A stretch of 32,000 nucleotides of DNA from Dyadobacter beijingensis DSM 21582 (GCF_000382205.1 NZ_KB907791.1:441007-473006), one strand, 5' to 3'. Numbered from the stretch's first letter, positions 314 to 16,974 are shown. The notes: generated by a model from the sequence alone, not told the origin. Numbers and translations are program-made.

Positions 314-625
314 ATGAGCGCAAAACAGATTACGACATTTGCCAAATGGGAGGTGAAGGCGGGCAAACTTGGAGAAGTGCTGGCACTGCTCGCGAAGCTA
401 GCGCCACCTAGCAGGAATGAGCCTGGTAGCCTCTCCTATACTGTGTACCAAAGCAATGCAGACCCAAATGTGATCGTGTTGTTAGAAGTCTATACTGACG
501 AAACGGCTCTCGCAGATCACAGAAGTTCGGCCCATTTCCAGCAGATTGTCATACAGCAAATCGTACCGCTGCTGGAAAACAGGGAAGTCGTACTGACAAC
601 AGAACTAGCACTGGACGACATTTAG
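314..625 (+). CDS. Antibiotic-biosynthesis-monooxygenase (ABM) domain protein / putative quinol monooxygenase
   Basis: It is 103 aa, the typical ABM size. The pattern ...LLEVYTDETALADHRSSAHFQQ... matches the ABM/YgiN-like 'e.w.d..al..H..s.hf' motif. It starts 15 nt after the upstream gene. Confidence 0.75.
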   Translation: MSAKQITTFAKWEVKAGKLGEVLALLAKLAPPSRNEPGSLSYTVYQSNADPNVIVLLEVYTDETALADHRSSAHFQQIVIQQIVPLLENREVVLTTELALDDI

Positions 626-796
626 GATTATTTACCATTCAAAACCAAAGTCGTCTAAAGCGAATGGAAATTGCCGTCGACAAGCAATGGAAATCTTACA
701 CCACGCGGTAAGAAAAGCGCACGAAACTAAGATTCCAGTCTGAAAGAAGATTTCGCGATTGCCACCGCCGGAAGCTCCGGTTAAACACCCAGTGCC

Positions 797-1432
797 ATGA
801 TTAGCGATTCAGGAAACGCACATGTATTCAAGCTCACTTTGGGTGAAATGACGCCTGAAATGGGGTTGATCTTTATTCCAGATATAAGTGGATTTACACG
901 CTTTGTTCAGGATACAGATTTCTCAACCGGCAGAAGAATTATCTACGAGTTGCTTTCCGCGATCATCGATGAAAACGAGCTGATGCTCCGTATTTCGGAA
1001 ATAGAGGGCGATGCAATCTTTTTTTACAAGCTGGGTCGTCCGCCCTCTGTTTTTGAATTGCTGGGGCAGTTCGAGAGAATGCGTAACGCATTTCACTTTC
1101 GGTTGGAGCAGATTAACCGGCTGTTAGGCGTAAAGTTTGACCTGACGTTGAAATTAATCGCTCACTACGGCCCCATTGCGGAGTACGACCTCCGAGGTTT
1201 TAAGAAGCTATACGGGCAGGCCGTCGTGGAAGCGCATGTATTGCTTAAAAACGAGATTGCCAGTCATTCCTACGCGTTGCTCACGGCGGACCTGATAGAA
1301 GCTGCGATGATGGTACAAATCGAAGAGGTACCGGTGGGAATTCAGTCGCATACCATTTGCCGCACAAATGGCGAAATCGTCCATATTTGTTATACGTACT
1401 ACGATTTCGGGCAAACCGGTTTTGAATCATAA
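797..1432 (+). CDS. DUF2652-like protein (nucleotide-cyclase-like fold family)
   Basis: 211 aa. The N-terminal GLIFIPDISGFTRFV resembles the conserved start of DUF2652 proteins common in Bacteroidota. The call is from memory of the family, not a search. Confidence 0.5.
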   Translation: MISDSGNAHVFKLTLGEMTPEMGLIFIPDISGFTRFVQDTDFSTGRRIIYELLSAIIDENELMLRISEIEGDAIFFYKLGRPPSVFELLGQFERMRNAFHFRLEQINRLLGVKFDLTLKLIAHYGPIAEYDLRGFKKLYGQAVVEAHVLLKNEIASHSYALLTADLIEAAMMVQIEEVPVGIQSHTICRTNGEIVHICYTYYDFGQTGFES

Positions 1433-1448
1433 GCCCTGATTTTCACTC

Positions 1449-2007
1449 TTGCTTCCAAAGATGGGTATACTTGGCAAGTTTGCCTCTTCACTTGAACGCC
1501 GGTTGTCGGCACTCGGTGCTTGCATGGTGCTGCTGGCCGGCGTGCACGCAAATGCCGGCAATCCTTACGCATACTGGCTGATACCGGGGATTAACTATAA
1601 GATATCGGAGCGCCGGTATGCGTTTGCTCAGATTGGCTGGACCCGGAGCAAAATTTCTGCTCGGTCATGGTAATTTTATTCTTCGGCCCCGACCAAACTT
1701 TGATGTCAACCTGGGGTTTATGTTCATCGATTATTTGGTACCCGAAACAGAAGAATGGACGCTAATGAACGGGATCACATGGAGAATTCCTGTTGGTAGC
1801 TTTCTGATCGAAAACAGGAGCTTGGTCTGGAACAGGTTCGTCTCCGAAGCGCCTGATCTGCATTTCCTTCGCAACCGAGTCAGGTTCATGCGACTTGTTC
1901 ACAATGTGTGGCAACTGACGCCCTATCTGTTCGATGAGCCCAGCTACTCATTTAACAGGAGAAATAGAAGCTTTCGGTGTGCCGTCTCAAAACCTCGTAG
2001 CATTTGA
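1449..2007 (+). pseudogene. Signal-peptide-bearing barrel-type protein (DUF2490-like?), apparently frameshifted near 1620-1675 and possibly 3'-truncated
   Basis: Two overlapping ORFs in different frames (1449-1673 and 1618-2007) read as one protein. The first has a signal-peptide-like LSALGACMVLLAGVHANAG. The second has beta-strand-like alternating segments. Its 3' end abuts the integrase remnant. Confidence 0.3.
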
Positions 2008-2279
2008 ATGTTCCGACAGCGTATTCCTGGCCAACTAGCGAGTGCATCCGCCGATTGTGCTCTACAATCACCGCCATCAACATCCGCTGTTTTGGGCCGA
2101 TTCCCAAGAATTTGTTTTTAATGGTTTCGGCAGTTGCAAGCTCGCCTGGCGAATTAAAGAAGCATGTGCGTCAAGTAATTGTTGTTCAAGGTTGCCCAAA
2201 TAAGCGTTGAGTGACTTCACGGCCTCCTTGTTACCTAGAACCCGACCTGCGCGCGCATTCCAGGTCCTAGGGTCGCACT
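1965..2279 (-). pseudogene. Remnant of a tyrosine integrase (Arm-binding/SAM-like N-terminal region only), truncated at both ends and internally frameshifted
   Basis: The minus-strand translation CDPRTWNARAGRVLGNKEAVKSLNAYLGNLEQQLLDAHASLIRQ, and after a frameshift TAETIKNKFLGIGPKQRMLMAVIVEHNRRMHSLVGQEYAVGTFKCYEVLRRH, is collinear with residues ~40-140 of the integrase at 5134-6315. The left boundary is approximate. The right boundary is the IS3 end. Confidence 0.8.
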
Positions 2280-2294
2280 TGTCTTGGCCCCTTA

Positions 2295-3179
2295 TTAGTT
2301 GGACACTTCTTCCAGCACGGTTAAGGCGTTTGGCATAGCTTCTTCCCATTTCTTTTGGGGTGTGGTAAAGCCGATGGAGCGGTGTAACCGGCGTTCATTA
2401 TAATGCTTGATGAAACGCTGCAACGTTTCTTTTGCCTCGTAGTAACTGGCAAATTCATTACGTTCAATCACCTCACGCTCCAAAATACTGTGAAACGCTT
2501 CGATATAAGAGTTTTCTTCTGGTGTTGCTACGTGTGTAAACTCTTGTCTGACTTCCGAATTTTTCAAAAAATTACGCACTTTGTTAGCGATGAATTGGCT
2601 ACCGTTATCATTTCGCAGAACGACGCCTTGTAACTGATGAAAATGGTTGACGCGGCGCAATAAATTTATTAAGTCCAGTTGTCGAATGCTGCTCTGGAAT
2701 ATCCAATCGACGATTTTACGGGTAAATACATCTAAAATACACAGGAGATAATAATTACGTCGCTCACCATTGATCCAGATATACTTAATATCCCAGCAAA
2801 GATACTCCAGGGGCTTTGTGGCTTCAATTCGCCGAAATTGAACAAAATCCCGCTTCCCAGCCGGTCGAATCATCTTTCCCAATAGTAGGTCATTGGCTAG
2901 CATCAGGCGGTATACCTTCTTCTTGTTGATTATATATTCCTTTTTCAGTTCGTGTGTAATGTATTCATATCCAAATGCATTAAATTCAGTATCAATAAGT
3001 TGCCTAATCCGTGCGGTCACATCTTCGTTTGATACTGAAACCCCGTCTACGGTCATAGTTTCACGACTAGGTTTTACCCCTGGTGTTCCCTGTCGTGGTT
3101 TGTAGTATGTTACACTCCGCGGTACTTCTAACCACCGGCACAACTCTTTTCGGGTCGCATTAAGCTGATATCGTGCCAT
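2295..3179 (-). CDS. IS3-family transposase OrfB (DDE/rve integrase core), normally made as an OrfAB fusion
   Basis: 294 aa with rve-type motifs (WDIKYI..., LRNDNGSQF, ...PEENSYIEAFHSILEREV...). Its frame stays open upstream of the ATG, back through the A8 run in the -1 frame relative to orfA. Confidence 0.9.
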   Translation of the reverse strand: MARYQLNATRKELCRWLEVPRSVTYYKPRQGTPGVKPSRETMTVDGVSVSNEDVTARIRQLIDTEFNAFGYEYITHELKKEYIINKKKVYRLMLANDLLLGKMIRPAGKRDFVQFRRIEATKPLEYLCWDIKYIWINGERRNYYLLCILDVFTRKIVDWIFQSSIRQLDLINLLRRVNHFHQLQGVVLRNDNGSQFIANKVRNFLKNSEVRQEFTHVATPEENSYIEAFHSILEREVIERNEFASYYEAKETLQRFIKHYNERRLHRSIGFTTPQKKWEEAMPNALTVLEEVSN

Positions 3180-3184
3180 GATAG

Positions 3185-3505
3185 CTATCTTTTCCTGGGT
3201 CCGATAGGAGTTTTTTTTAGCAGCTCGCTTTTTACCTCCAATTCCAAAGCTTGCTTGGCCACAATCCGCTTAAGTCGCTCATTTTCTTCTTCAAGAGCGC
3301 GTAATTGAGGATCGACACGGACATATGAATCGCGAAGGCCATCCTTACCACTGTCTAAATACTTTTGCCTCCACTTTCTCAAAAGTGATGGTGACAGGTT
3401 GTACTTCCTACTGACATCAGCATGGCCGTCCCGAAGAGATTCCTGTACGATCGAATAGCGATCTTCGGCGCTGAATGTTCGTCTTTGTTTACTCATGATT
3501 CCCAA
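3185..3505 (-). CDS. IS3-family transposase OrfA (HTH DNA-binding / leucine-zipper part)
   Basis: 106 aa. Motifs are RRTFSAEDRYSIVQE...LSPSLLRKWRQKY (HTH_Tnp_1-like) followed by a coiled-coil region, LRALEEENERLKRIVAKQALELE. Confidence 0.9.
   Translation of the reverse strand: MGIMSKQRRTFSAEDRYSIVQESLRDGHADVSRKYNLSPSLLRKWRQKYLDSGKDGLRDSYVRVDPQLRALEEENERLKRIVAKQALELEVKSELLKKTPIGPRKR
3211..3218 (-). other. Programmed -1 ribosomal frameshift site of the IS3 element (A8 slippery run)
   Basis: The minus strand reads CTA AAA AAA ACT in the orfA frame. The orfB frame is -1 relative to orfA and stays open across this run (..AKKNSYRTQEKIAIMARYQL). A-AAA-AAA heptamers are the classical IS3-family frameshift signal. 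Confidence 0.75.
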
Positions 3506-3562
3506 ATTAAATGGACTAAACTGTTTTTACAATTTTGTCCAACCATTTAGGGGGCTAAGACA

Positions 3563-3743
3563 CTTCCGCCAGGCAGAGCGACAAAGACGTGTCATCGGAC
3601 CATGTTCCGGGTGGTAGGTTGTAAGTCCCATAACCATCCATGTCGTCGACTGGCTTAACTTCAAATTCCTTTCGTGGCTTAAATTCATACGGTACACCAA
3701 GCGCATCGCCAATTGCTATTCCAAGCAGAGCATCTTTTATCAC
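3563..3743 (-). pseudogene. ADP-ribosylglycohydrolase family protein, N-terminal ~60 codons only, cut by the IS3 end
   Basis: [21 protein letters not shown]...[15 protein letters not shown] matches the N-terminal metal-binding motifs of the ARH/DraG family (GDALG.P.EF, G.wsDDT). The reading frame runs into the IS3 terminal repeat and stops there. Confidence 0.8.
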
Positions 3744-4105
3744 AGGCCTATATCGAAATGTTATCCGGGCAAATGTATCTCAATTGATAATGGAAGTCCA
3801 GAATTTTGGAAAGCAATCGCAACGCGGGTACACCAAACTGCCGCGTTAGTATGCCCAGCACTAGCTACGTCCATCAATGAAAATTTATAAAACTCTTCCG
3901 CTAGCGACTTCGGAGCGTTTGAGCGGCCAGATGAGATTGTGACACAATCTGACATCTGGCCGATTGCGGGTAAGAGGCAATCCCGAAGTTCCCGGATTCG
4001 CACTTGCCCGTTGAACGGAGAAGGAAAAGTGATATTCGTCCCGTCATGAACGTATTACAAGAAAGCCCTATATTTAGCAGATACTATTTCACGTAACAAA
4101 AGTCT

Positions 4106-5155
4106 GTGAGCTTAACTACGGTAGACCTAGCCACTGGTCGCTATCAAATTTCAAAGGGCGTGACCGCGAATGAATTGGCTAAATTGGCAGAAGATCTGAA
4201 AACTTCTGTAATCCAGCTTTCCAAGCCGATTGATACTAAAACCATTGCCTTACTGGAACAAGTCGTTTTTTCCAAACGTCGAGACATCGCCCTGAGGGTG
4301 TATGGGCACTATTCTGAGAGATGTGATCTAAGCTTTATTGAAAAGATACCATCGATTAGAGAGCTCTCGGTAGATTGTCTGATGGAGGTCACTAATATTG
4401 ATGTAGTTACGAGAATCCGGCACTTAGATGGACTGCATGTAGGCATTTTTGGACTTGATAACTTTGAGTTCCTGAATAACGTCGACCCTCACTTGAAGCG
4501 GCTCTCGCTATATCAGACTCGATCAAAAAAACCAAGGATTGAGACGATTGGTCGGTTCACTGAACTTAACGAACTATTCTTAGAAGGACAGAGCAAGGGG
4601 ATTGAGGCCATTAATGAGTTGAAAAAACTCGAAAAAATCGTATTGCGATCTATATCAACCCCGGATATTGAATACCTTAGGAATCTGGAACGCTTATGGT
4701 CCGTTGATATTAAGTTAGGAGGTATAAAGGATTTAAGTGCATTAAAATCCCTACCCAATTTGAAATACCTGGAAATTTGGCAAGTTAGAGGACTTTCAGA
4801 CCTGTCGGTTCTATCGGACTTAAAATCGTTACAAAACTTATTTCTTCAATCACTACCGCAGCTCGCCGTGTTTCCTGCAATATCTAGCTTGGGTAAACTA
4901 AGGCGTATTGACCTTGAAAATCTAAAAGGTTTGATGGACTTGAGTGAATTGAAATCTGCGCCTGCCTTAATTGAATTCAGTTACTTAATGGCACAAAACC
5001 AAAGCCCTGAAAACCTCATCCCTGTACTCGAAAATAAGAGCCTGAAAAGGGTCTCTTGTTATTTTGGTAGCGATAGGAAGAATAATGATTTTAAAAAGCT
5101 AGCCCAGTCATTTGGAAAAGATGAGTGTGAGTATCAAAAGTTCGTGTATAACTGA
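4106..5155 (+). CDS. Leucine-rich-repeat (LRR) protein
   Basis: 349 aa with a GTG start per the ORF track. It has about 22-24-residue LxxLxxLxL repeats, for example LPNLKYLEIWQVRGLSDLSVLSDLKSLQNLFLQSLPQL and LGKLRRIDLENLKGLMDLSEL. Its 3' end overlaps the convergent integrase 3' end by 22 nt. Confidence 0.6.
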   Translation: MSLTTVDLATGRYQISKGVTANELAKLAEDLKTSVIQLSKPIDTKTIALLEQVVFSKRRDIALRVYGHYSERCDLSFIEKIPSIRELSVDCLMEVTNIDVVTRIRHLDGLHVGIFGLDNFEFLNNVDPHLKRLSLYQTRSKKPRIETIGRFTELNELFLEGQSKGIEAINELKKLEKIVLRSISTPDIEYLRNLERLWSVDIKLGGIKDLSALKSLPNLKYLEIWQVRGLSDLSVLSDLKSLQNLFLQSLPQLAVFPAISSLGKLRRIDLENLKGLMDLSELKSAPALIEFSYLMAQNQSPENLIPVLENKSLKRVSCYFGSDRKNNDFKKLAQSFGKDECEYQKFVYN

Positions 5156-6315
5156 GGTTCATTCGCATAGATCTGCGTAGTACGGATGTTCGTATGTCCA
5201 AGCATTTTAGAAACACTCTCAATCGGAACTCCATTTTGCAGGGTAATCGTAGTAGCGAACGTATGCCTGGCTACGTGTGAAGTGAGAACTTTATCAATCC
5301 CGCAGATTACGGCAATCTCTTTCAGATAATCATTCATTTTTTGGTTACTCGGCACCGGCAAAACGAGCCCGCGGGATTCGCAAAGCGGATGGCCTTTGTA
5401 TCTGTCAATGATTTGAAGCGCTTCCGGCAGCAACGGAATGTGAGACTTGACATTCATTTTGGTGCGCTGGCTAAATATCCACTGTTCACCGTCAATTCCT
5501 CGTGTTATCTGGCTTTTTTCGAGCTTCTGAACATCCGAGTAGGCCAGGCCGGTGAAACAACAAAAAAGAAAGGTGTCCCGAACCTGTGCAAGCCGGTCGC
5601 TAGCAAATTCTTTCCCCGCCATCAAATCCAATTCAGTTCTAGTGAGGATCTCCTTGTCAACCTTTTTAAATTTACCCTTGAAGTTCAAATACGGGTCAAG
5701 GTTCATCCAGCCATTGCCCAGGCAGATGTTGACGATTTTGCGGAACATTTTCATGTGCTTCACCACCGCGTTGTTGCCCATTTTACGAACTGAGCGGAGA
5801 TAGAATTCGTAATCGGCGATGAAAGCGAAATCGATGCGACTAATGTCAAAATCGGTTGTGTTGAATGTCACTTTCAGAAATGCGAGTGTATGGCGTTCTA
5901 AAACCTTATAGCGATTGAATGTATCGATTGCATATTCCTGGCCAACCAGTGCCTTCATCCGATCATTATGGTCAGCAATCACTACCATAAGTAACCGCTG
6001 CTTAGGACCGACGCCCAGAAATTTGTTTTTGACCGTTTCCGCTGTTATCAATGCGCCGTCGCGAACCAGGGCGGCGTGGGCGTCGAGTAGTTACTGTTCT
6101 AAGTTGCCGAGATAAGCGTTGACGGATTTCACGGTTTCCTTCGCACCGGTAACTCTTCCCGCAACCGCATTCCATCGACTGGGTTCGCATTCGCGCCCGG
6201 TCGTAAATTCAGCTCTTTTACTTTCAACCGTAATCCGCAGATAGATCGGAACCGGACCTTTCTGATAATTCTTCGGCTTCTTCAAATAGAAAAGCAGACT
6301 GATCTTTGTTTTCAT
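5134..6315 (-). pseudogene. Tyrosine recombinase/integrase (Bacteroidota Arm-binding + SAM-like + catalytic domains) with one in-frame TAA at 6091-6093
   Basis: The ORFs 6091-6315 and 5134-6051 are in the same frame (1182 nt = 394 codons). The minus strand reads ...AAC TTA GAA CAG TAA CTA CTC GAC... (NLEQ*LLD). The C-terminal catalytic motifs are HVARHTFAT and LGHTNIRTTQIYA. Confidence 0.85.
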
Positions 6316-6511
6316 ACCCTTTTCAGGTTAAAAAGTTGAACAAAAGTAGTCTTGCAAGCCTGGTCAGCGCAAGATGTCCACCGCATGGACATCTTGTAAA
6401 TCAATTGGTTACGCGATTTCTGGTGAGTAAACTTTTCAGGCTGATTGACTCACCGAATTACTCACCAAAACTTTGAGAATATTTGAACGTTTTGGTATAG
6501 TAGGGGCAAAC

Positions 6512-6545
6512 AAAAAAGCCTGCAATCGTTTGATTTGCAGGCTTT
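6512..6545. terminator. Rho-independent terminator-like hairpin, stronger on the minus strand
   Basis: A perfect 8-bp stem GCCTGCAA (6518-6525) / TTGCAGGC (6534-6541) has an 8-nt loop. An A6 run precedes it (T6 on the minus strand) and TTTT follows it on the plus strand. It lies between the small ORF 6591-6833 (-) and the integrase upstream region. Confidence 0.55.
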
Positions 6546-7003
6546 TGATGCTTTTTGTTATTTCTTTAAGTGATCCCGCTGGAATCATTTTTATCGCCTA
6601 ACTGCCTCATAAACAGCATTGCTTCTGAATAGGATTTCCAGGTTACCGGATAGGTTACCGGATGAAATGATCAATACTGTCGAGCTTTGACCACTTTCTA
6701 CAAGTATAAAACTACTGATTTTTTTCTTATAGACAGTAACATATTCCATATTGATAATGCGATGACACCGAACAACTGCCTGATTGTTTGCTTCAAAAGT
6801 CTGTACCGTTCGGTGTCTTTGGGAGATACCCACTTTTGCTAGTTTTGGGAATCGCCTCCTGTGTATGCTCGCAGTTCGGATTCTCTACTTGTCGACGGAA
6901 TACTTGGCATCGCCTAAAGTTCTGTCGTAAGACTTACCAAAGCAATTGGAGTAAATTTTTATTCAAGGGATTCAGGATTGCTGAGCAAATTGAAAACAAA
7001 ATG

Positions 7004-7011
7004 TAACTTTG
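7004..7011 (+). promoter_or_regulatory. Candidate Bacteroidota -7 promoter element (TAnnTTTG) for the 7055-10276 operon
   Basis: TAACTTTG lies 44 nt upstream of the ATG at 7055 and fits the TAnnTTTG consensus used by Bacteroidota sigma-A. No convincing -33 TTTG was found at the ideal spacing. Confidence 0.3.
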
Positions 7012-7054
7012 AGAATTCTGATCTACAGTTTCCCCTCCCTAATAAGCTAACAAT

Positions 7055-7873
7055 ATGAGTCAATGTTTCACCATACAGCCTTTTGACAAAGATCGTTTTG
7101 ATAAGCGCTTTACAGATGTGTTTGAGCCCGCAATTAAGAAGGCTGGCTTAAATGCCTATCGGATAGATCGTGATCATTCAGTAAGAATCCCGATCGAGGA
7201 GATTGAGAAGGGCATAAGGGAATCGGAAATTTGTTTCGCGGAAATTACTACTAATAATCCGAACGTATGGTATGAGCTAGGCTATGCGTTTGCGTGTGGG
7301 AAGGATGTTGTGATGGTTTGCTGCAAAGATGAACGCAAAGAAGAATTCCCATTCGATGTGCGACATAAATTTATACTCGACTATAAAAGCACTTCAACAA
7401 GTGATTTCCAGTCTCTCTCCGAACTCATTACCGAACGTATCAAAGCATACCTTGCCACATCTAAGGTCACTGAAAAGCTCTCACTATCACCGATAATGGA
7501 AACTGAGGGGCTAAATGCTCAAGAAATTTCAGCACTAATAATAACGCTCGAGAATCAACCGACAGACCATGATATGTTAAGCGTCAATAGCTTGATTGAT
7601 TACATGGGCAAGGCTGGGTTCACTCGGGCAGCTACAAACGTGGCAATTCGCACTCTCAAACGCAAACAGCTGGTCGACTTTGTTCAAAAGGAAGAATATA
7701 ACTATAACGAATCCTACCAAATAACTTACTGTTTCTTGACAAAAAAAGGTGAAGATTGGCTAATCGATAATCAGGATAAAATTCGAATTAGGTTAGATCC
7801 ATCTGAAAAAATAAGTTCCGAAAAAACGGAATCCCCGTCTGAAAATGATGGTGATGATGATTTACCATTTTAA
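7055..7873 (+). CDS. Nucleoside 2-deoxyribosyltransferase-like / TIR-like Rossmannoid domain fused to a C-terminal winged-helix domain, with an acidic tail
   Basis: The N-terminus reads FTIQPFDK..FDKRFTDVFEPAIKKAGLNAYRIDRD...ICFAEITTNNPNVWYELGYAFACGKDVVMV. This fits the NDT/TIR-like pattern (DxxxxnpNVxyElGyAxaxgK). The C-terminal ...GFTRAATNVAIRTLKRKQLVDFV... is wHTH-like. The protein ends in ENDGDDDLPF. Confidence 0.6.
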   Translation: MSQCFTIQPFDKDRFDKRFTDVFEPAIKKAGLNAYRIDRDHSVRIPIEEIEKGIRESEICFAEITTNNPNVWYELGYAFACGKDVVMVCCKDERKEEFPFDVRHKFILDYKSTSTSDFQSLSELITERIKAYLATSKVTEKLSLSPIMETEGLNAQEISALIITLENQPTDHDMLSVNSLIDYMGKAGFTRAATNVAIRTLKRKQLVDFVQKEEYNYNESYQITYCFLTKKGEDWLIDNQDKIRIRLDPSEKISSEKTESPSENDGDDDLPF

Positions 7874-7907
7874 CTTTTTCGTTTTGAGTACTTACATTAG
7901 TTAAGAA

Positions 7908-9428
7908 ATGATTTTCAAGATACTCAATCGTTGGGGCGACTACCCTCCGTCCACTCGTAACCAAGTTATCCTTACCTGGGATAATTGGAATGATTTCCAA
8001 TTCTACACGTCCTTCGGCATTTTCTATATCGACGAGGATTCGAAAAAGCACGAACTTAGTGGTATAAAGATTGGATTTATTGGTCAGTCGGTGAAGCAAC
8101 GTGTATACAGCATAGGTCATTCGTTTGACCGCCTTGAATCACCATATTTTTCCTTGGGAACCTCCGAAGAGTACTACGAAAAATTAAATTTGCTTCCGGA
8201 TGATATCAGGGATGAAATTTTATCAGGCCTTCGCGATCTCGCAAAGGATACGGAACTGTTTTATGAGGTGATCAACGAACCGGTAGTCGCGAAATCGTTG
8301 CTGAGAGACCTAAGCATATCAACAGTTACGGGACAGTTTAAACGAATGACCGAAGGGGGGGCTAAGCTGACGGACTACCATTTTAAATTCAATTATGCGG
8401 GATTTGCAACGACTCATCCGGTCGAACTAACTTTTGACGTGTCTCCCGAGTCTCAGCCACCAACTAACATTCATGTGATTATTGGAAGAAACGGAGTTGG
8501 TAAGACATACTTGATAAATAGTATGATTGATGCTCTTGTTATCGATGGGAAGAAGCAAACCGGTGGGGGGGACTTTGACTTCGTTGGTTATAATTCTGAA
8601 AGTGGAGATTCATTTGCGAACTTAATATCCATATCCTTTAGTGCTTTTGACGAGGTAGAACCGAAGTCGAAGAGCACTAAATTTATGGGTAACATCAGTT
8701 ATTCCTATATCGGATTAAAAAATACAGAGGCAACAAACCTGCGACGTTCCTCCATCAAAGATCCATCTCTATTGGCAGATGAATTTCTAAATAGTTTAAG
8801 GGCATGTCGTTCAAGACTTTTGTCAAAAAGATGGCTCCAAGCTGTCTCCACGCTCGAGTCGGACCCGAATTTCTTTGAAGCTGGTATTCGGAGCTTGATC
8901 GACGAGGTCTCTCCTCGACGGTCCGCAGACGTTTTAAATGTTTTTCGAAGGCTCAGTTCGGGACATAAAATCGTGTTGTATTCAATCACAAGTCTCATTG
9001 AAAAACTACAAGAACGTAGCCTTGTCATAATGGACGAGCCTGAGGCGCACCTGCATCCTCCACTATTATCAGCCTTTATTCGGTCGGTTTCCGATCTTTT
9101 AATTATGACTAACGGTGTTGCGATTGTTGCGACCCATTCGCCAGTCATTCTTCAGGAGGTCCCTAGAAGTTGTGTATGGAAGTTGAGGAGAAGCGGACCG
9201 GTTATGGTTGGAGAGAGACTTGCGAGAGAATCATTCGGTGAAAACGTCGGAACATTAACAAATGAGATTTTTGGTCTTGAGGTTACTGATTCCGGTTTCT
9301 ATAAAATGTTAAATAAGATTATGAAGCTACAAAATTTTGATTATGAGTCCGTTATTCGAGAGTTCGGAGGTCAGTTAGGAATGGAGGCAAGGTCAATTTT
9401 AATGGCTGAAATTGCGAATAGAGAATAA
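7908..9428 (+). CDS. ABC/AAA_21-type ATPase (Septu PtuA-like) with a ~190-aa N-terminal extension of unknown function
   Basis: Walker A is GRNGVGKT (8484-8507). The ABC signature-like motif is LSSGHK. Walker B plus D-loop is LVIMDEPEAHLHPPLL (D376 at 9033). The H-loop is VATHSPVILQE. The stop overlaps the next start (TAATG). Confidence 0.75.
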   Translation: MIFKILNRWGDYPPSTRNQVILTWDNWNDFQFYTSFGIFYIDEDSKKHELSGIKIGFIGQSVKQRVYSIGHSFDRLESPYFSLGTSEEYYEKLNLLPDDIRDEILSGLRDLAKDTELFYEVINEPVVAKSLLRDLSISTVTGQFKRMTEGGAKLTDYHFKFNYAGFATTHPVELTFDVSPESQPPTNIHVIIGRNGVGKTYLINSMIDALVIDGKKQTGGGDFDFVGYNSESGDSFANLISISFSAFDEVEPKSKSTKFMGNISYSYIGLKNTEATNLRRSSIKDPSLLADEFLNSLRACRSRLLSKRWLQAVSTLESDPNFFEAGIRSLIDEVSPRRSADVLNVFRRLSSGHKIVLYSITSLIEKLQERSLVIMDEPEAHLHPPLLSAFIRSVSDLLIMTNGVAIVATHSPVILQEVPRSCVWKLRRSGPVMVGERLARESFGENVGTLTNEIFGLEVTDSGFYKMLNKIMKLQNFDYESVIREFGGQLGMEARSILMAEIANRE

Positions 9429-10276
9429 TGCGATCAATAACAAAGCCCAATCTAGACGCCTCGGTCGTATTTTCCGACTGCGTCAGCGTAGTACAATCTG
9501 AGAATCTAAGGCAGCGCCTAACTGCTTGCGCGGGCCTAATTGAGGATGCCGAAGAGGAGTTTGAACGGAAAATTACACGAGGCCGTATTCATACAATTGC
9601 TAGGGAGGATAGAGTAAATGGAAATGTATCCGTGAAGGAATTTATGAATCTCTACACCGGAAGGATGGTAGGGAACCCGTTAGGCCGGATACATTATGAC
9701 AAATTGCTTCTGTCAGCCCCAAACGGATTATGTCCGTTATGCGGTCACCGAGATGTGTCAACATTGGATCATTATCTACCTAAATCGAAGTATCCGCGTT
9801 TATCAGTTGTGCCAATAAATTTAGTTCCATCATGTAAGGATTGTAACACTGGTAAGCTTGTTGATTTTCCCGTGTCACCTGAGACCGAGACGTTACATCC
9901 ATACTTCGACCGAATTGGTAATCAACGTTGGTTATCATTAACAGTCAATAAGACCACTCCACTGTCTGTTACTTATTCAGTCGTTGATGTATTAGGTTCG
10001 GGTGCACTTATATTCGAAAGGATTAGGGAGCATTTCAAGGCATTTGGTCTTCAATCGCTATACGCCACGCAGGCCGCACGGGAACTTACAGGTATAAAAC
10101 TTCAATTAACCAATATTTTCGACAATGGGGCTGGATTTCCGGGAGTCCAAAGGTTCCTTAGAGATTCCGCGGAATCAAGATCAATAGATAATTTAAACTC
10201 TTGGCAGGCAGTTCTCTACGAAGGCCTTGCCAATGACGACTGGTTTTGTCGATTGGGTTTTCGAACCATTGCATGA
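9428..10276 (+). CDS. HNH endonuclease (Septu PtuB-like)
   Basis: CPLCGHRDVSTLDHYLPKSKYPRLSVVPINLVPSCKDCNTGK (9731-9853) fits the pattern C.xC...(x)DH..PKs.yp....NL.p.C..CN..K. It is translationally coupled to the ATPase. Confidence 0.75.
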   Translation: MRSITKPNLDASVVFSDCVSVVQSENLRQRLTACAGLIEDAEEEFERKITRGRIHTIAREDRVNGNVSVKEFMNLYTGRMVGNPLGRIHYDKLLLSAPNGLCPLCGHRDVSTLDHYLPKSKYPRLSVVPINLVPSCKDCNTGKLVDFPVSPETETLHPYFDRIGNQRWLSLTVNKTTPLSVTYSVVDVLGSGALIFERIREHFKAFGLQSLYATQAARELTGIKLQLTNIFDNGAGFPGVQRFLRDSAESRSIDNLNSWQAVLYEGLANDDWFCRLGFRTIA

Positions 10277-10454: not shown

Positions 10455-10955
10455 ATGGTCTCATTTGCAATTAAAGTCCTCTTGATAGCTGGAGTAATTG
10501 TCTCCATTGTTATTTCTCGTGTTTTAGATTTGTCATTCACAGTTGAAGGCATTTCGGCAGTCGGTAGTCTTCTTACAGGCATTTCTGCGCTGATAGCCAT
10601 TTTAGGTGCCTTCTATACTATGCGCTATCAGGTTAAAAAAACAGCTCATAGCGAGTGGTTGAAAGTGTTTCGATCAGAATGCGCTAAGGTACTGGCGTCC
10701 TCTCAAAAGCTTGAAGCAAATTCTATGAAAAGTGAGCTCGTTGAGTTCGGCAATTCAAGTATGACACTGTTGTTGCTACTTAATCCTAGATCTGAAAGCC
10801 AGCGGTTGCTTGAGAAGATGGTTAAAGATTTTACTATTTTTATGATGAGTTCCGATATGAGTGACCCAGACTTCAATAGGGTCTTTTCTAAGAATTGGAA
10901 TATAGTTCTCTCCCAAATGAAGGCAATTATTACGGAGGAAGAAAATAGCTTTTAG
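10455..10955 (+). CDS. Small membrane protein (two N-terminal TM helices plus a soluble helical tail), unknown function
   Basis: Hydrophobic stretches FAIKVLLIAGVIVSIVISRVL and AVGSLLTGISALIAILGAFYTM are followed by a charged tail. I recognised no family. Confidence 0.45.
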   Translation: MVSFAIKVLLIAGVIVSIVISRVLDLSFTVEGISAVGSLLTGISALIAILGAFYTMRYQVKKTAHSEWLKVFRSECAKVLASSQKLEANSMKSELVEFGNSSMTLLLLLNPRSESQRLLEKMVKDFTIFMMSSDMSDPDFNRVFSKNWNIVLSQMKAIITEEENSF

Positions 10956-11096: not shown

Positions 11097-14000
11097 ATGA
11101 GTCCCGAAAATGATTACGCATTAAGTCGTTTAGCCGTACGCCTTGATAACATAGAAAACGGCACGCCGATCGGCAGTGGAATACTATTTAATTGTAACAC
11201 GCCATCAGGTCCAGTTTATTTAATCACAGCGGCCCATTGCTTGTACGAGGATGAGGAGACTTTCCAGCTTCCGAGGTTACGGATACAAGCCCAATTTTTT
11301 GATCCTAGGCTTGGATCGCATCAATCTGTTACGATTAATGTCAATCACGATTTGGTGTCAAAATCTCCACTTAACGACATTGCCATAATTCATCTGGAGA
11401 AGGACGTGGTAGAGTTGATCACCGGCGAGTTGCCAACGGTTCATGCCATCAGCGAGCGACACTCAATCACTTCCTTTGTTTTGAAAGGATTTCCAAGCGC
11501 CACACGTGGCCAGGAAATTGTTATGATAAAGCCGGAGTTTGTTCAAGCGAATCCAGGAAGATTGGGTTTCCAGTTGCGCCTAACAGATGATTTTACCACG
11601 GATACCAGTGCAGAGTCGAAAGTGGACGGTTTCTCGGGGAGCGGGATTTTTCTGGAAACACATGGTAGACTGTATCTTTACGGTATTTTTACCCGGTTTC
11701 GAGAGGCTCAGAAGATCATCTATTGTCAAAACATCGAGACTGCCAACGAGCTACTTGCTGTTGCCTTTTTACAGACCATCCCCTTCACCTATATTGGTGA
11801 GCACGGACTCACGCCCGAGTTTTTTGCAAGGCACAATTCAGGCGCGATAAATAATCTGGGGCCGCGATTTAGTGAGCAATTGAATTTGCGATTGCCAATT
11901 GTCGGCGATTTTCATGACGCGCGTAGAGGCAATGCATTTAAATATAGGCTTCAAGATTGCGTCGAACAATGGCTTGATTCTCACAGACATTCCGGCTCAG
12001 ACTTCAAAGGCGGAATACTTGAGACAACTGTCAGTGAATGGCATTCTATCAAAAAGTCTGTTATTACGTGGATCACAAACATTCAATGGCGAGCTGACCA
12101 GCATCTCAGCATCGCCCCGATTCAAGATATTCTTGACAGTTTCAAGCTCCATGTTGATGCGAAAAAGGAGGATTTCTACGCACTGCGACAAAGGAACAGA
12201 CAACAAGAAACGCCGCCGAGCAATGAGAAGAAGAATGCTCATACTTCTCGAAGACAGCAGTATGAAGATGAATTGACTTGGCTGCGAACCGTTGATCAGG
12301 CTATTTACGCACTCGAGCGTGCATTATCAGAAATATCCATTACGCTTGCAAATAATCCCTTTCTGGTAATTAAAGGCGAGCCGGGATGTGGGAAGTCCCA
12401 TTTGCTCGGTGATATTGCTAGTTTGGCGACTAAGGATGGCGTTGCGACTCTCTTGTTATTGGGGCAGCTCTTCACAAAGAGTCAAAGCGTTGCTCAGAAC
12501 ATTTTAAGCCAACTTGGCCTTAACTGCTCTCCGGATGAATTATTCAATTCGCTGAACAGTATAGGTAGGCAGCAAGGTGCAAGAGTTCTATTGATGATCG
12601 ATGCGCTCAATGAAGGCCCAGGTAAGGACCTGTGGAAAGATTCGTTGGCGGGTTTTATTCAGGATGTAAAGAGGTATCCTTTTGTTGGTGTGATTATGAC
12701 TGTTCGGTCCACATATTTCAACGCTATTCTTCCAACAAATTTACAAAACGATGAAACGATCACGTACAGAGATCATCAAGGTTTTAAAGGAAATGAATAT
12801 GCGGCTCTCCGACTTTTCTGTGAACACTACGGACTACAAATGCCGACGTTTCCGATTTTGACGCCTGAATTTGCCAATCCACTCTTTCTTCAACTCTTAT
12901 GTCAGGGCGTTAAGATCTCTAGAAACAGGACTTTCCCGCATGGCTTCCAGGGGATTACAAAAGTATTTAACTACTATATAGATGCAGTGTTTGAAAGACT
13001 AGTCGGGAAAAGAGATGAGTATGAGAATCGGCGTCATATTGTCCGTGATGCTATTTTTACAGTTGCGAAAGCCTGTTTTAGTGATGATAATTCACGAATA
13101 TTGTCATTTGAAGATGCAGACAGGCTTTTTGAAAAAACTTTCCCGCGATTCCAACACTTGCTGAATGATCTTATTCACGAGAACGTTTTCATCCAAACGA
13201 CTCAAAATACCTACGATTTAAATCCAGGATTTGAAGCGCTGTCGTTTTCCTATGAACGATTCGGAGACATTTTCATCGCTGAGGAATTGTTGGCTGGGTA
13301 TGTTTCAACTGCGGATGTTAGCCAAGCATTTCAGAAAGATGGCAAGCTTGGACGGTTGCTAAAAGGCTATTTGTGGCCAAACAGAGGTGTTCTTGATGCA
13401 ATGGCTATTCGTTTACCTGAAAGATACGGCTTGGAACTAATGGAAATATGCGATTGGGTCTATGCCGAGGAGGAGGATTCAGAGTACAGTGATGTCGGCG
13501 AGTGGCTATCTCGATCTTTTTGGGACAGCTTAAAATGGCGACACCCGGAAAGCATTGATAATGCGAAGATAACAACATGGTTGAATAGCGACCAATGCAT
13601 GCTGAATGAACACGAGTACACTTTGAAGTTAGTCGAATTAGCAACTGTTCAGCAGCACCCCTTCAATTCGGATCGACTGTTCAGATATTTGAATCAGTTT
13701 TCGATGGCGGAACGCGACGCTTTTTGGCAAGAACATATGCTTAGATATTCTCGATATGATGACGATCGAAATGCTCTTCCAATAAGACGACTTATGGATT
13801 GGGCATGGCAAAAGGGAATATCATCATCAGTTGACATGGAGACCGCTCGCCTTGCCGCGCAAACTCTGGCTTGGCTTCTTTCAAGCACTTATAGACAACT
13901 TCGGGACCAAGTAACTAAAGCCATGGTGAATTTGCTAGAAGAGCAGCCAGATGTCCTAATTGAAGTTATGACAGCGTTTAAGGATACAGACGATGTCTAT

Positions 14001-15431
14001 ATTTCGGAACGGCTTTACTCAGTAGCTTATGGATGTGTACTTCGGACTGCGAATGGCAGTAGCATCGCGAAAATAGCGAAATACGTATATAACCGTACGT
14101 TCATTGGTAAAAACCCGCCCATTCATGTACTGCTTCGTGATTACGCTAGGAATATTTTGGAATATGCCGACTACAAAGGACTAGCTGACTACGCCGATAT
14201 GGCACGAGTACGTCCGCCCTACAATAGTGACTTTCCAAAAAGATTACCGTCCGAATCGGAGATTAAGCAATTCGAAAATAGTTTTGAAGGGACAGGCCAA
14301 AGCTTGGAAAAAGAAAAAAACAGGATATATGGACAGATACATTTTTCAACGACCACATGGGATTTTGGGCGCTATGTGGTGAAAAGTGCCCTTAGGCATT
14401 TTGCCCCAACTAGTTTTAAATTCGAGTCGACATATAGAGATTTTAAAAAGTCACTTAAAGGAAAAAGAAAATCTTTCATATCCGTGTTAGAATCAAGTGC
14501 TCGCCTACATTCGGTAATCGAGGAAAGGCGTGCACAAGGTGTTAAATCCCTTTTTGGCAAGTCGACAGATGATTGGCTTAGAGAAGAAGAAGAGCATCTT
14601 CAGGTATGTCTTGATCGTATGAATGGACCATTTGATCAGATAGAAATGATGCAAATACGCGACGAATTTTTACCTTTTCTCAAAGCGAAATATGCGAGCC
14701 AAAGTGGCCAACGGGATGCTATTGATGACGGACCCATCAAACGCTGGATTGTCCAGCGTTCATTCCAATTGGGATATGACATCGAAAAACATTATGATTA
14801 CGACAGCCGTACCGAAAGACTCAACGAGTTTCCAGACTATTATGGAAGCAAAATTGAGCGCATTGGAAAAAAATATCAATGGATTGCATTCCATGAAATT
14901 GTTGCCCGGCTTTGCGACAATTACCATTTCATCGAAGATAGATGGAGCTCGAGTGCTAAGTATGGGTTGTACCAGGGGCCATGGCAGCTTTTAATAAGAG
15001 ATGTCGATCCGGTGTTCACAACAAAGACAAAGAGAGAGGAAAATGACAGCGACTTGGGAGAAGCTACCGATTTTTCAAAAAAGGATTGGAGGTTTGACGC
15101 AGATTACCGATACTGGAACCAGCCGGTATCGCAATGGGTAAGAAATAAGCAAGATCTACCTGCACCCGAAAAAATGATTCTTCGTAAAGATGATTATGGA
15201 CACGAGTGGGTGTACCTGCGAATGAACAAAACTTGGCAAGAACCGAAGGGAGTTGGATCGGACCGACATATTAGTCGTAAGGAGATATGGTATGGGATTA
15301 ATTCTTATCTCGTACCAAAGCGAGACAGAAAGAAGATAGTTGCGTGGCTAGAGGGGAAAAACTTCTTCGGCAGATGGATGCCTGAACCTGACGAAATGAG
15401 CTTAAATCTTTTCAATAGGGAGAATTATTGA
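11097..15431 (+). CDS. Trypsin-like serine protease fused to a STAND/NACHT-like P-loop NTPase with a long helical C-terminal region (Avs/NLR-like). The frame continues past the TGA to 15881
   Basis: Protease triad motifs are LITAAHCL (His47 at 11235-11237), NDIAIIHL (Asp94) and DGFSGSGIF (Ser180). Walker A is GEPGCGKS (12375-12398). Walker B is LLMIDALNEG (Asp502 at 12600-12602). More than 900 aa of mostly helical sequence follows. Confidence 0.8.
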   Translation: MSPENDYALSRLAVRLDNIENGTPIGSGILFNCNTPSGPVYLITAAHCLYEDEETFQLPRLRIQAQFFDPRLGSHQSVTINVNHDLVSKSPLNDIAIIHLEKDVVELITGELPTVHAISERHSITSFVLKGFPSATRGQEIVMIKPEFVQANPGRLGFQLRLTDDFTTDTSAESKVDGFSGSGIFLETHGRLYLYGIFTRFREAQKIIYCQNIETANELLAVAFLQTIPFTYIGEHGLTPEFFARHNSGAINNLGPRFSEQLNLRLPIVGDFHDARRGNAFKYRLQDCVEQWLDSHRHSGSDFKGGILETTVSEWHSIKKSVITWITNIQWRADQHLSIAPIQDILDSFKLHVDAKKEDFYALRQRNRQQETPPSNEKKNAHTSRRQQYEDELTWLRTVDQAIYALERALSEISITLANNPFLVIKGEPGCGKSHLLGDIASLATKDGVATLLLLGQLFTKSQSVAQNILSQLGLNCSPDELFNSLNSIGRQQGARVLLMIDALNEGPGKDLWKDSLAGFIQDVKRYPFVGVIMTVRSTYFNAILPTNLQNDETITYRDHQGFKGNEYAALRLFCEHYGLQMPTFPILTPEFANPLFLQLLCQGVKISRNRTFPHGFQGITKVFNYYIDAVFERLVGKRDEYENRRHIVRDAIFTVAKACFSDDNSRILSFEDADRLFEKTFPRFQHLLNDLIHENVFIQTTQNTYDLNPGFEALSFSYERFGDIFIAEELLAGYVSTADVSQAFQKDGKLGRLLKGYLWPNRGVLDAMAIRLPERYGLELMEICDWVYAEEEDSEYSDVGEWLSRSFWDSLKWRHPESIDNAKITTWLNSDQCMLNEHEYTLKLVELATVQQHPFNSDRLFRYLNQFSMAERDAFWQEHMLRYSRYDDDRNALPIRRLMDWAWQKGISSSVDMETARLAAQTLAWLLSSTYRQLRDQVTKAMVNLLEEQPDVLIEVMTAFKDTDDVYISERLYSVAYGCVLRTANGSSIAKIAKYVYNRTFIGKNPPIHVLLRDYARNILEYADYKGLADYADMARVRPPYNSDFPKRLPSESEIKQFENSFEGTGQSLEKEKNRIYGQIHFSTTTWDFGRYVVKSALRHFAPTSFKFESTYRDFKKSLKGKRKSFISVLESSARLHSVIEERRAQGVKSLFGKSTDDWLREEEEHLQVCLDRMNGPFDQIEMMQIRDEFLPFLKAKYASQSGQRDAIDDGPIKRWIVQRSFQLGYDIEKHYDYDSRTERLNEFPDYYGSKIERIGKKYQWIAFHEIVARLCDNYHFIEDRWSSSAKYGLYQGPWQLLIRDVDPVFTTKTKREENDSDLGEATDFSKKDWRFDADYRYWNQPVSQWVRNKQDLPAPEKMILRKDDYGHEWVYLRMNKTWQEPKGVGSDRHISRKEIWYGINSYLVPKRDRKKIVAWLEGKNFFGRWMPEPDEMSLNLFNRENY

Positions 15432-15533: not shown

Positions 15534-15881
15534 ATGAGCGAGGACAAATCTGATGCTCACTTTTATTACGAGATGCCTTCAAAGATAATCTTTGAAGGTA
15601 TGGGATTGAATTATGCATCTGAGGATGGTTGCTTTACGAATGGAGATGGTCAAGTTGTTGTGATCAATGTAGATCAGACTGGGGTCTTGGTGAGGAGGAA
15701 AGAGTTGGTACTGTTTCTCAATAATAATAACTATGATATTATATGGACCTTACTCGGAGAAAAAAATGCTCTAACAGGGTTATCGACGAACAGTGATGCA
15801 TACTTTAAAGCAATATGCGGAGTCTACCAATTTGAAGGAGATAAGATAATTGGCGATTTATCTATTTTTGAACGTAACTAA
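15534..15881 (+). CDS. Either the C-terminal ~150 codons of the protease-STAND protein, separated by an in-frame TGA, or an independent 115-aa protein
   Basis: It is in the same frame as 11097-15431. The 34 codons between the TGA (15429-15431) and this ATG contain no stop (SPAAKFDNSQRNLWETISGTKFKVILTTNRAVGE). I recognised no family. Confidence 0.4.
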   Translation: MSEDKSDAHFYYEMPSKIIFEGMGLNYASEDGCFTNGDGQVVVINVDQTGVLVRRKELVLFLNNNNYDIIWTLLGEKNALTGLSTNSDAYFKAICGVYQFEGDKIIGDLSIFERN

Positions 15882-15885
15882 AAAT

Positions 15886-16974
15886 ATGCGCATTCGATTT
15901 TATCAGGTTGACTGTGGTGACGCGGCTAGTATTTTGTATGAAGGCAGTGATGGGAAGGACAACTATGTTTTCGTAGACGCTGGCTACGAGAGGACTTATC
16001 GAGAAATTCTCGCTGACGAAATCAAGATTATCGATGCGACAGGTGCTACGATTGATCTGTGGTTGATTTCTCACATCCATGATGATCATATTGGCGGAGC
16101 TGTCTCATATGCAAAAGCGATAGAAAGGTGCGATGCCAGGGACATCGTTTCAAATTGGTGGTACAATCATCCCTATAAAGCAATAGGAGATACGAAAGCT
16201 CCCAAGTCAACTTTTAATATAAGTGAAGCCAAAAGTTTCGCGCAGAGTGAAAAACTAACCTCCTACCTCCGATCGGCTGGTCGTCTGCCGAAGTTTGATA
16301 TTGTTCAAGCAATCGATCCCAAATACCATAACGATCTGAAAATCAATATACTGTCACCAACGAAGGATGCTGTAAACAAATTGAGAGAAAAATATGAGAA
16401 TTCCAGCTTTCTCGACAGGGACTATCATGAGATGACCGCGATTAGTGAGCCGAAAGCAGCGAAAATGAATGACTACTGCCAAACGATAGAGAGCTTTGAT
16501 TTAGAGGCTTTTGCAGAGGATGTGTCAATCGAAAATGAAAGTAGTATAGCGATTTTGATAGAGCACAGTGGCATACGAATACTCTGGTTGGCCGACTCCC
16601 TTCCTAGCATAATTACAACCGCTCTTAGAAATCTTGGATACTCCGAAGGGAACCCATTGCAGGTTGACCTAGTGAAAGTCTCCCATCATGGAAGCCGTGG
16701 AAACAATAGCAGCGAACTGTATGATATGGTTCGCTGTGACAAATATATTTTCTGTGGAAGTGGAATCAATAAGCACCAATTGCCTACGAAAGAATGCATG
16801 GTGAGAATTCTTAAAAATAAATATAGGGACGTTAGAGACCGATACGAGTTTATATTTACTCACGACAATCCCAGCCTCCGCGGAATTTTTGATGTTGATG
16901 AAATTGACATTGTTAAAAACTTAAACTTTACGATGACTTTTTCTGCCTCTAAATATGTCGATTTGCATTTTTAA
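15886..16974 (+). CDS. Metallo-beta-lactamase-fold hydrolase, ComEC/Rec2-type (probable nuclease)
   Basis: HxHxDH motif SHIHDDHIGG (16072-16089). A later VKVSHHGSRGNNS is typical of ComEC-type MBL domains. I prefer the ATG at 15886 (MRIRFYQVDCGDA), 4 nt after the upstream stop, over the track start at 15850. Confidence 0.75.
   Translation: MRIRFYQVDCGDAASILYEGSDGKDNYVFVDAGYERTYREILADEIKIIDATGATIDLWLISHIHDDHIGGAVSYAKAIERCDARDIVSNWWYNHPYKAIGDTKAPKSTFNISEAKSFAQSEKLTSYLRSAGRLPKFDIVQAIDPKYHNDLKINILSPTKDAVNKLREKYENSSFLDRDYHEMTAISEPKAAKMNDYCQTIESFDLEAFAEDVSIENESSIAILIEHSGIRILWLADSLPSIITTALRNLGYSEGNPLQVDLVKVSHHGSRGNNSSELYDMVRCDKYIFCGSGINKHQLPTKECMVRILKNKYRDVRDRYEFIFTHDNPSLRGIFDVDEIDIVKNLNFTMTFSASKYVDLHF

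Follow-up and report, generated by a model that had tools for sequence, protein, structure and literature searches.

The question raised by a 32,000-nt stretch of the Dyadobacter beijingensis DSM 21582 genome (GCF_000382205.1 NZ_KB907791.1:441007-473006; called here the window, with coordinates counted from its first letter) is whether a gene lying immediately upstream of a Septu-type pair is a working part of that system or an immune module of its own that travels with it. Three genes on the plus strand are concerned. Gene 1 (7055-7873, 272 aa) encodes a head with the fold shared by nucleoside 2-deoxyribosyltransferases (NDT), DNPH1 and TIR domains, followed by a winged helix, a disordered acidic linker and a C-terminus resembling the tip of SSB (the protein that binds single-stranded DNA). 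Gene 2 (7908-9428, 506 aa) encodes a PtuA-type ATPase and gene 3 (9428-10276, 282 aa) a PtuB-type HNH nuclease. An initial annotation of the window described these genes as a possible three-gene variant of Septu. The coordinates, the 34-nt gap between the first two genes and the TAATG overlap between the last two are as it claimed, and every ATPase, HNH and gene 1 motif that it quoted is present.

The arrangement is a real inherited unit in one small clade. As to its function, we lean towards reading the cassette as two immune modules under one promoter, in which gene 1 is a self-contained sensor-effector stacked with Septu and not an obligatory third component.

The Septu-type pair and the three-gene cassette

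Judged by their sequences, genes 2 and 3 form a PtuA/PtuB pair that is clearly of Septu type, although divergent, and of an already known kind; the initial annotation had proposed a Septu-type pair. The window's PtuA is 100% identical to a protein of Dyadobacter beijingensis. The product of gene 2 is an ABC/AAA_15/AAA_21 ATPase with an N-terminal domain of ~185 aa that is typical of its subfamily. Its residues 1-506 align with positions 1-516 of the 520 in the PADLOC profile PDLC00282 'PtuA1|PtuA' (E=2.9e-174), the match to PDC-M01A in the same database is also full length (7e-191), and the Pfam families AAA_21 (5.3e-13) and AAA_15 (1.6e-10) are recognized as well. All of the ABC-ATPase motifs are present on the plus strand: Walker A GRNGVGKT (aa 193-200, 8484-8507), the signature LSSGHK (aa 349-354, 8952-8969), the Walker B/D-loop DEPEAHLHP (aa 376-384, 9033-9059) and the H-loop ATHSP (aa 408-412, 9129-9143).

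Gene 3 overlaps gene 2 by 1 nt at the junction GAGAATAATGCG, where the stop codon TAA (9426-9428) and the ATG (9428-9430) have one base in common. Its product matches PADLOC PDC-M01B (1.8e-98); no model named PtuB is among the PADLOC matches listed for it, and the Pfam HNH match falls slightly under the cut-off (E=1.1e-3, 19.5 vs 21.4 bits). The HNH core follows the pattern CxxC...DH...N...CxxC and is made up of CPLCG (aa 102-106, 9731-9745), DHYLPKSKYP (aa 114-123, 9767-9796) and NLVPSCKDCNTGK (aa 131-143, 9818-9856), all on the plus strand. PtuA is followed by PtuB in all complete related loci (L001-L004, L007, L108, L110, L111 and L112, 10 loci with the window). In its full-length profile matches (PDLC00282 and PDC-M01), its ATPase motifs, its HNH core and this conserved, overlapping two-gene layout the pair is like other Septu systems; the window's clade differs in the third, co-inherited gene before the pair. 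No Septu subtype with this composition was found in PADLOC, NCBIfam or the literature, in line with the initial annotation.

The pair does not belong to the retron-associated form of Septu. Gene 2 scores 39.9 bits against the NCBIfam equivalog for retron-type PtuA (NF041760), whose cut-off is 500 bits, no reverse transcriptase is found among the open reading frames (ORFs) of the window, and no Rfam family is detected in it. A reading of the whole locus as a retron, in which an NDT-winged helix-turn-helix (wHTH) protein and PtuAB would both be retron effectors, was rejected on the same two absences.

The order gene 1-PtuA-PtuB occurs in four loci that form one small clade, namely the window, L007, L096 and L110, of which L096 is partial, its contig ending after PtuA. 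Two of these loci, L007 (67%) and L110 (64%), are among those with the closest homologs of the window's PtuA. Among the window, L007 and L110, DNA homology sets in within 5 nt of where gene 1 starts and stops ~30 nt short of the PtuB stop codon; the regions flanking the cassette are unrelated from locus to locus. In neighbour-joining trees, which carry no support values, the PtuAs that have gene 1 beside them cluster together; the gene 1 proteins linked to PtuAB also cluster, nested among relatives that are solo or in other contexts. The spacing between gene 1 and PtuA is kept, with 34 nt in the window (7874-7907, plus strand) and 44, 45 and 38 nt in L007, L096 and L110, although the sequence of the spacer is not conserved. 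This bounded homology amid unrelated flanks, together with the grouping in the trees and the kept spacing, indicates a single ancestral fusion, after which the unit was inherited and relocated intact.

Outside this clade the association is absent from the loci compared. Gene 1 is missing beside six sister PtuAB pairs (L108, 64%; L111, 60%; L112, 60%; L001, 58%; L002, 57%; L003, 44%), so that the lack of conservation beside homologous ATPase/HNH pairs, which the initial annotation had named as evidence against its own proposal, is largely what is seen. Of these sisters, the L111 pair lies in a CTnDOT-like element and that of L112 comes after a Lamassu LmuB-type gene. The gene 54 nt 5' of PtuA in L002 was considered as an alternative first gene and set aside; it has a GxGxG motif like that of methyltransferases and no relation to gene 1. 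The initial annotation had also proposed to look at whether gene 1 co-occurs with an N-terminal extension of PtuA. The extension is found in all members of the subfamily, with or without gene 1. The PtuAs of the cassette (506-507 aa) have no domain beyond those of the others (502-512 aa).

The cassette is compact and its three genes are probably co-transcribed. No terminator-like hairpin is found in the 34-nt spacer, and the gap upstream of PtuA is 34-45 nt in the cassettes vs 54-219 nt in loci that lack gene 1. TAnnTTTG is the -7 promoter box of Bacteroidota. A regular-expression scan finds an exact match to it, TAACTTTG, at 7004-7011 on the plus strand, 51 nt upstream of the gene 1 ATG, which makes this a candidate promoter box for the cassette. 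Within 200 nt 5' of PtuA the pattern occurs in none of the four cassette loci vs three of six loci without gene 1. The pattern is soft evidence for a promoter. A sigma-70 promoter and terminator scan, which does not cover Bacteroidota promoters, gave counts at or below the expectation from shuffled sequence.

The first gene and its family

The head of gene 1 (~aa 1-135, 7055-7459, plus strand) has a flavodoxin-like fold of the NDT/TIR superfamily. By sequence the assignment is weak. The match to the Pfam NDT family PF05014 (E=1.6e-4, 22.2 bits) is under the 28.8-bit cut-off and Pfam TIR gives no match, while the PADLOC 'Effector TIR' profile PDLC00733 matches aa 15-116 (8.4e-8). Support for it comes from AlphaFold2, which gave a confident model from an alignment of 34 homologs (predicted local distance difference test, pLDDT, 84.3; predicted template modelling score 0.75); the head of this model matches those folds in Foldseek. 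The matches are to NDT, DNPH1/Rcl and the CMP N-glycosidase BcmB (8pqt and 4jen among them; template modelling score to target 0.6-0.76) and, at E ~1e-3, to the TIRs of SPARTA, RPP1, AbTir and RUN1. A head of the NDT/TIR superfamily with a winged helix behind it agrees with what the initial annotation suggested.

More than 600 homologs of gene 1 share the invariant core QPFD / NPNVWYELG / PFD..H, which in the window corresponds to Q8-P-F-D11, N68-P-N-V-W-Y-E74-L-G76 and P99-F-D101..H104. The predicted catalytic Glu74 lies within NPNVWYELGYAFACGK (aa 68-83, 7256-7303, plus strand) and is invariant in 34 of 34 aligned sequences. When the family profile is aligned to DNPH1, the glutamate of NPNVWYELG falls on that of 'GYELG', which is Glu104 if the numbering is counted through the D80A-mutant chain and which is the proposed nucleophile of DNPH1 (PMC10483697). 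Gene 1 is like DNPH1, NDT and the CMP N-glycosidases BcmB and MilB in its fold, in its '...YELG' glutamate and in the phosphate-loop positions. It differs from them in falling under the Pfam cut-off, in its added wHTH and tail, and in a context that is mobile or defence-related and not metabolic.

The head is followed by a winged helix (~aa 150-240, 7502-7774, plus strand), modelled by AlphaFold2 as helices at 155-166, 177-186 and 191-203 and strands at 207-216 and 219-228. Foldseek matches this C-terminal half to the winged helices of PadR, TFIIE and ORC, and weak Pfam matches to wHTH-type families cover aa 158-255. A disordered linker of low complexity, acidic and rich in serine, comes next (~aa 241-266, 7775-7852, plus strand). 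Model confidence is low here (pLDDT <50 at aa 257-268), and both the length and the sequence of the linker differ across the family.

The protein ends GDDDLPF, which gives a more specific form to the acidic tail seen by the initial annotation. The last six residues (7853-7870, plus strand) are identical to an SSB acidic tip, which is DDDIPF in Escherichia coli and DDDLPF in the SsbA of Staphylococcus aureus and Streptococcus mutans (PMC5531588, PMC5143411). L270, P271 and F272 are at least 90% conserved in the gene 1 alignment. Among 149 cluster representatives the C-terminal ends include IPF (60), LPF (30) and VPF (17), usually preceded by acidic residues, and several representatives of the C-terminal module end exactly in DDDIPF. 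The likeness to the SSB C-terminus lies in a disordered linker followed by D-D-D-[IL]-P-F at the very end of the protein; the difference is that gene 1 has no OB fold and is not an SSB, although its tip could bind SSB-interacting proteins. An alternative reading of the tip is offered by S. mutans, in which the LPF end doubles as a ClpXP degron.

The C-terminal module is found behind several different heads. A word-indexed search with the C-terminal half of gene 1 returned one fragment only, and an exhaustive search with a profile of the winged helix plus tail was used instead; it identified 663 cluster representatives, most of them with the standard architecture of ~260 aa. The module with its tip is carried by TIR_2 heads in P0322, P0375 and P0384 and by a PIN_8 nuclease head in P0346. 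In P0350 it stands behind a DUF4062 head (PF13271, 2.4e-31), in a sequence without the tip ending, and P0282 has ~160 additional residues before an NDT-like head.

Endings of the same kind were sought among 2135 stop-to-stop ORFs of at least 80 aa in 708 kb, a small sample biased toward defence loci. An acidic-[ILV]PF ending is present in 85 of them, 82 of which belong to the gene 1 family. The other three are an OLD-family ATPase-TOPRIM nuclease ending ...DDDLPF (L018, 7139-8743, minus strand), an Abi_C protein ending ...YDDLPF that lies ~1.8 kb downstream of a PtuAB pair without gene 1 (L002, 10145-10978, plus strand), and a PDC-S32 candidate ending ...DEELPF directly upstream of a gene 1 homolog (L072, 836-1198, plus strand). 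The three are unrelated proteins of defence type. This distribution suggests that immune effectors of Bacteroidota have repeatedly been fitted with an SSB-tip mimic. No description tying the SSB tip to anti-phage defence was found in the literature.

The genomic context of gene 1 relatives changes with their distance from the window. In L110 (72% identical to the window's gene 1) and at P0003 (L007, 69%) PtuA and PtuB follow, and at P0002 (L096, 72%) PtuA is next before the contig ends. At 63% and below the neighbours are of other kinds: P0004 (63%) has unrelated genes on both sides, P0006 (58%) comes after HigBA, P0008 (56%) after a phage tail-lysin-like gene, P0015 (Dyadobacter sp. NIV53, L010 6001-6750; 55%) is among insertion sequence and Tn3 transposase genes, and P0031 (52%) is alone. 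PtuAB is missing from all of these loci, as from all 80 metagenome loci examined, so that no gene 1 locus below 69% identity with readable flanks has it. The metagenome loci carry homologs of 41-55% identity and have the highest scores among at least 565 confirmed matches; their contigs are short, with at least 500 nt downstream in 56 of the 80.

One further relative, P0005 (L095, 63%), is encoded at 3474-4280, on the same strand as the preceding gene for a 1032-aa ResIII/DEAD helicase (339-3437) and 36 nt downstream of it, and the contig then ends; a different tight partnership is possible there. Degraded copies are also seen. P0015 is such a copy, 249 aa long and without the SSB-tip ending, and P0241 in Dyadobacter bucti is a 92-aa copy that is 67% identical to the C-terminal half of gene 1.

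All-vs-all clustering of flanking ORFs identifies no recurrent neighbour of gene 1. In bulk PADLOC and Pfam scans, 150 neighbour proteins are a mix of restriction-modification methylases, TIR_2 and HEPN_AbiV proteins, transposases and products of housekeeping genes, with PtuA at L007 and L096 only. In two IMG/VR contigs a lone gene 1 homolog lies between a minor-head/neck gene and the maturation protease (L101 6001-6783, L103 6001-6744), and the layout of a third is the same (L105 6001-6708). The order of this phage module is terminase, portal, minor head, neck, gene 1, maturation protease, major head. These homologs (40-43% identity) look like moron-type cargo genes in a typical cargo position. 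In a tblastn search of phages and plasmids only the head domain was matched, weakly and at under 45% identity, and relatives of full length were not found. Gene 1 behaves as an autonomous module: it has no recurrent neighbour, occurs as lone phage cargo and has a C-terminal module that is swapped onto other heads. Its family is large and, as far as was found in the literature, apparently undescribed.

Stacked modules or a coupled system

If gene 1 is a self-contained sensor-effector placed beside Septu, its head would hydrolyse a nucleotide or NAD+, with Glu74 as the predicted nucleophile, and so cause a depletion of the abortive-infection type. Its C-terminal half would be the sensing or regulatory part and could bind a phage protein or DNA as the predicted trigger. 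The tip, as a mimic of the SSB ending (DDLPF-COOH), could dock on proteins that recognize SSB tips or fold back to auto-inhibit the enzyme. PtuAB would act in parallel as a gated nuclease. By analogy with characterized PtuAB, the ABC-type ATPase PtuA would oligomerize and restrain the HNH nuclease PtuB, which infection would free to cut nucleic acid. Reported targets of E. coli PtuAB systems are tRNA-Tyr and DNA. Gene 1 would have been fused upstream of PtuAB in the ancestor of a small Bacteroidota clade, would probably have brought its promoter to the fused cassette, and would then have moved with PtuAB as one unit. Behind the sensor-effector reading is the C-terminal module, which stays the same while the enzymatic heads are exchanged, a design that single-protein immune systems have.

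Among the closest described designs of this kind is Swarozyc, a single protein in which a DUF4062 TIR-like NADase is joined to a C-terminal HTH/winged auxiliary domain; the auxiliary domain binds the phage portal and the head depletes NAD+ (bioRxiv 10.64898/2026.05.01.722283). Gene 1 is likened to it by architecture, the wHTH and the auxiliary domain being set side by side by description only. Both are one polypeptide with an N-terminal head of the TIR/NDT superfamily, a conserved Glu at the catalytic position and a C-terminal HTH/winged domain, and both are found in defence islands; in one gene 1 relative, P0350, the C-terminal module of gene 1 type is attached to a genuine DUF4062 head. However, the head of gene 1 has no match to Pfam PF13271 and looks closer to NDT/DNPH1, and the term 'SSB' occurs 0 times in the Swarozyc preprint (bioRxiv 10.64898/2026.05.01.722283).

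A second likeness is to the effectors of type II retrons, in which an NDT-like domain precedes a winged helix in the same order as in gene 1. The NDT-plus-DNA-binding effector of retron Ec86 kills by depleting adenine derivatives, and PtuAB and NDT-wHTH proteins are alternative effectors of related retron reverse transcriptases. Unlike these effectors, gene 1 has the SSB-tip tail and mostly stands alone, and the window has neither a reverse transcriptase nor a non-coding RNA. Similarity of gene 1 to retron effectors is undetectable in PADLOC (E<=0.1) and PDB searches. Gene 1 belongs to neither Swarozyc nor the type II retron effectors.

Several points weigh against two stacked modules. The linkage is tight and long-lived, with the spacing kept at a PtuA identity of 64-67%, and coupling fits this as well as stacking does. 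The exact TAnnTTTG box 5' of gene 1 is found in the window only. With its head under the Pfam NDT cut-off, nucleotides, NAD+ or nothing are all possible substrates of gene 1. The window's PtuA aligns with the solved PtuA of retron-Ec78 over ~70 residues in the signature/Walker B region (E ~4e-5) and PtuB barely matches the solved retron-type PtuB (E ~0.8); given this remote similarity, the mechanism of PtuAB is transferred by analogy only. Both this PtuAB subfamily and the whole gene 1 family are known as sequences alone. The history is drawn from unsupported neighbour-joining trees and from only four cassette loci, one of them partial.

A possible, if not a probable, alternative is that the cassette is a true three-component Septu variant, in which gene 1 was co-opted as a sensor, regulator or second effector and is coupled to PtuAB, physically or functionally. 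The block of homologous DNA has its edges at gene 1 and PtuB amid unrelated flanks, the cassette members are monophyletic in both trees, and spacers of 34-45 nt, with no promoter box or terminator before PtuA, have been kept over 30-40% protein divergence. There is also precedent for the co-option of PtuAB by other sensing modules, as with the reverse transcriptase and multicopy single-stranded DNA of Retron-Ec78, and PtuAB and NDT-wHTH effectors replace one another in type I-A and II-A1 retrons. However, equally diverged sister pairs (L108, L111, L112, L001 and L002) do without gene 1, and relatives of gene 1 at or below 63% identity have other neighbours. No co-adaptation is visible, since the cassette copies of gene 1 retain all family-invariant residues and the tip, and PtuA shows neither an extra domain nor a change in length. 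The three-gene variant put forward by the initial annotation stands as an inherited unit of the four-locus clade. It is not supported as a general variant, with six sister PtuAB pairs lacking gene 1 and gene 1 occurring elsewhere without PtuAB.

More doubtful is a broader proposal, in which the acidic-[ILV]PF end is a working SSB-tip mimic that joins a set of Bacteroidota immune effectors to the SSB interaction network and, in the D. beijingensis clade, gene 1 has in addition become a true third part of Septu. The tip-bearing set would comprise the NDT-like gene 1 family, its TIR/DUF4062/PIN relatives, the OLD-family nuclease, the Abi_C protein and the PDC-S32 candidate. The mimic could lure phage proteins that make use of the SSB of the host, or give access to replication and recombination intermediates.

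It is unlikely that gene 1 is a ligand-sensing transcription factor, with a Rossmann-like sensor and a wHTH, that controls the Septu operon in the manner of BrxR or CapW. It does have a winged helix, with the weak wHTH-type Pfam matches at aa 158-255, and it is the leading gene of the cassette, 5' of which the sole candidate promoter lies. However, most members of the family have no operon to control, being solo, flanked by heterogeneous and often convergent neighbours, or inserted alone in phages. The head keeps an invariant constellation of catalytic type, including the Glu at the nucleophile position; the other heads found on this C-terminal module (TIR, DUF4062 NADase and PIN nuclease) are effectors and not ligand sensors; and the conserved SSB tip would be left without explanation. 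The solo and phage-moron contexts and the pattern of effector swapping led us to judge a dedicated regulator improbable.

Least likely of all is a fortuitous adjacency of neighbours in a defence island, or a housekeeping enzyme of nucleoside/nucleotide salvage: defence islands, of which the window is one, do juxtapose unrelated systems, and several homologs are annotated 'nucleoside 2-deoxyribosyltransferase' in their source records, but order and spacing repeat in four loci with unrelated flanks and homology that stops at the edges of the block, and neither a wHTH nor an SSB tip would be expected of a salvage enzyme, nor would such an enzyme be distributed patchily among transposons, toxin-antitoxin genes and phage morons, or have its C-terminal module in common with TIR and PIN heads.

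The surrounding island and what the cassette means

The cassette lies in a defence island that holds a split integrase, Avs2, a metallo-beta-lactamase (MBL)-fold gene, a HEPN_Apea candidate and AbiJ. Upstream, a tyrosine integrase, probably a pseudogene that arose by frameshift, is encoded in two frames on the minus strand, with 305 aa (SAM-like and catalytic domains, with a TTG start) at 5134-6051 and 74 aa (Arm-DNA-binding domain) at 6091-6315. It is overlapped by the 3' end of a leucine-rich repeat protein gene (4106-5155, plus strand). The ~740 nt directly 5' of gene 1 (6316-7054) contain no convincing ORF and no Rfam match, and the stretch upstream of gene 1 is likewise long (>500 nt) in L007 and L096.

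Downstream, a 166-aa ORF with hydrophobic N-terminal segments (10455-10955) begins 178 nt past PtuB. It was rejected as a fourth component, as it matches no family and homology among the cassette loci stops at PtuB. It is followed by a full-length Avs2 (11097-15431) with a trypsin-like N-terminus and a STAND NTPase (NCBIfam NF041813, E=0), and then by the MBL-fold gene (15850-16974). These two genes resemble the 'Avs2-trypsin-MBL' system that the abstract of a 2026 preprint mentions. Next come a 489-aa protein (17085-18554), whose weak match to HEPN_Apea (3.2e-4) is below the cut-off, and AbiJ (18765-19712; AbiJ_NTD3 2.8e-48, Abi_C 1.3e-16).

The Septu pair of D. beijingensis is itself known and ordinary, and the three-gene cassette is a lineage-specific variant. 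Read as two stacked modules, it would show a widespread two-gene system in lasting union with another immune module that works independently, and nature provides in it a test of whether stacking of this sort is mere co-expression or creates cross-talk. In the family of gene 1 the sensor would stay constant while the heads (NDT-like, TIR, DUF4062 and PIN) are swapped, as in proven single-protein abortive-infection systems, and its SSB-tip ending provides a concrete handle for mutation. If the tip does dock on proteins that interact with SSB, the sensing of phages would be tied to the SSB hub of the host, a connection that we did not find described in the literature.

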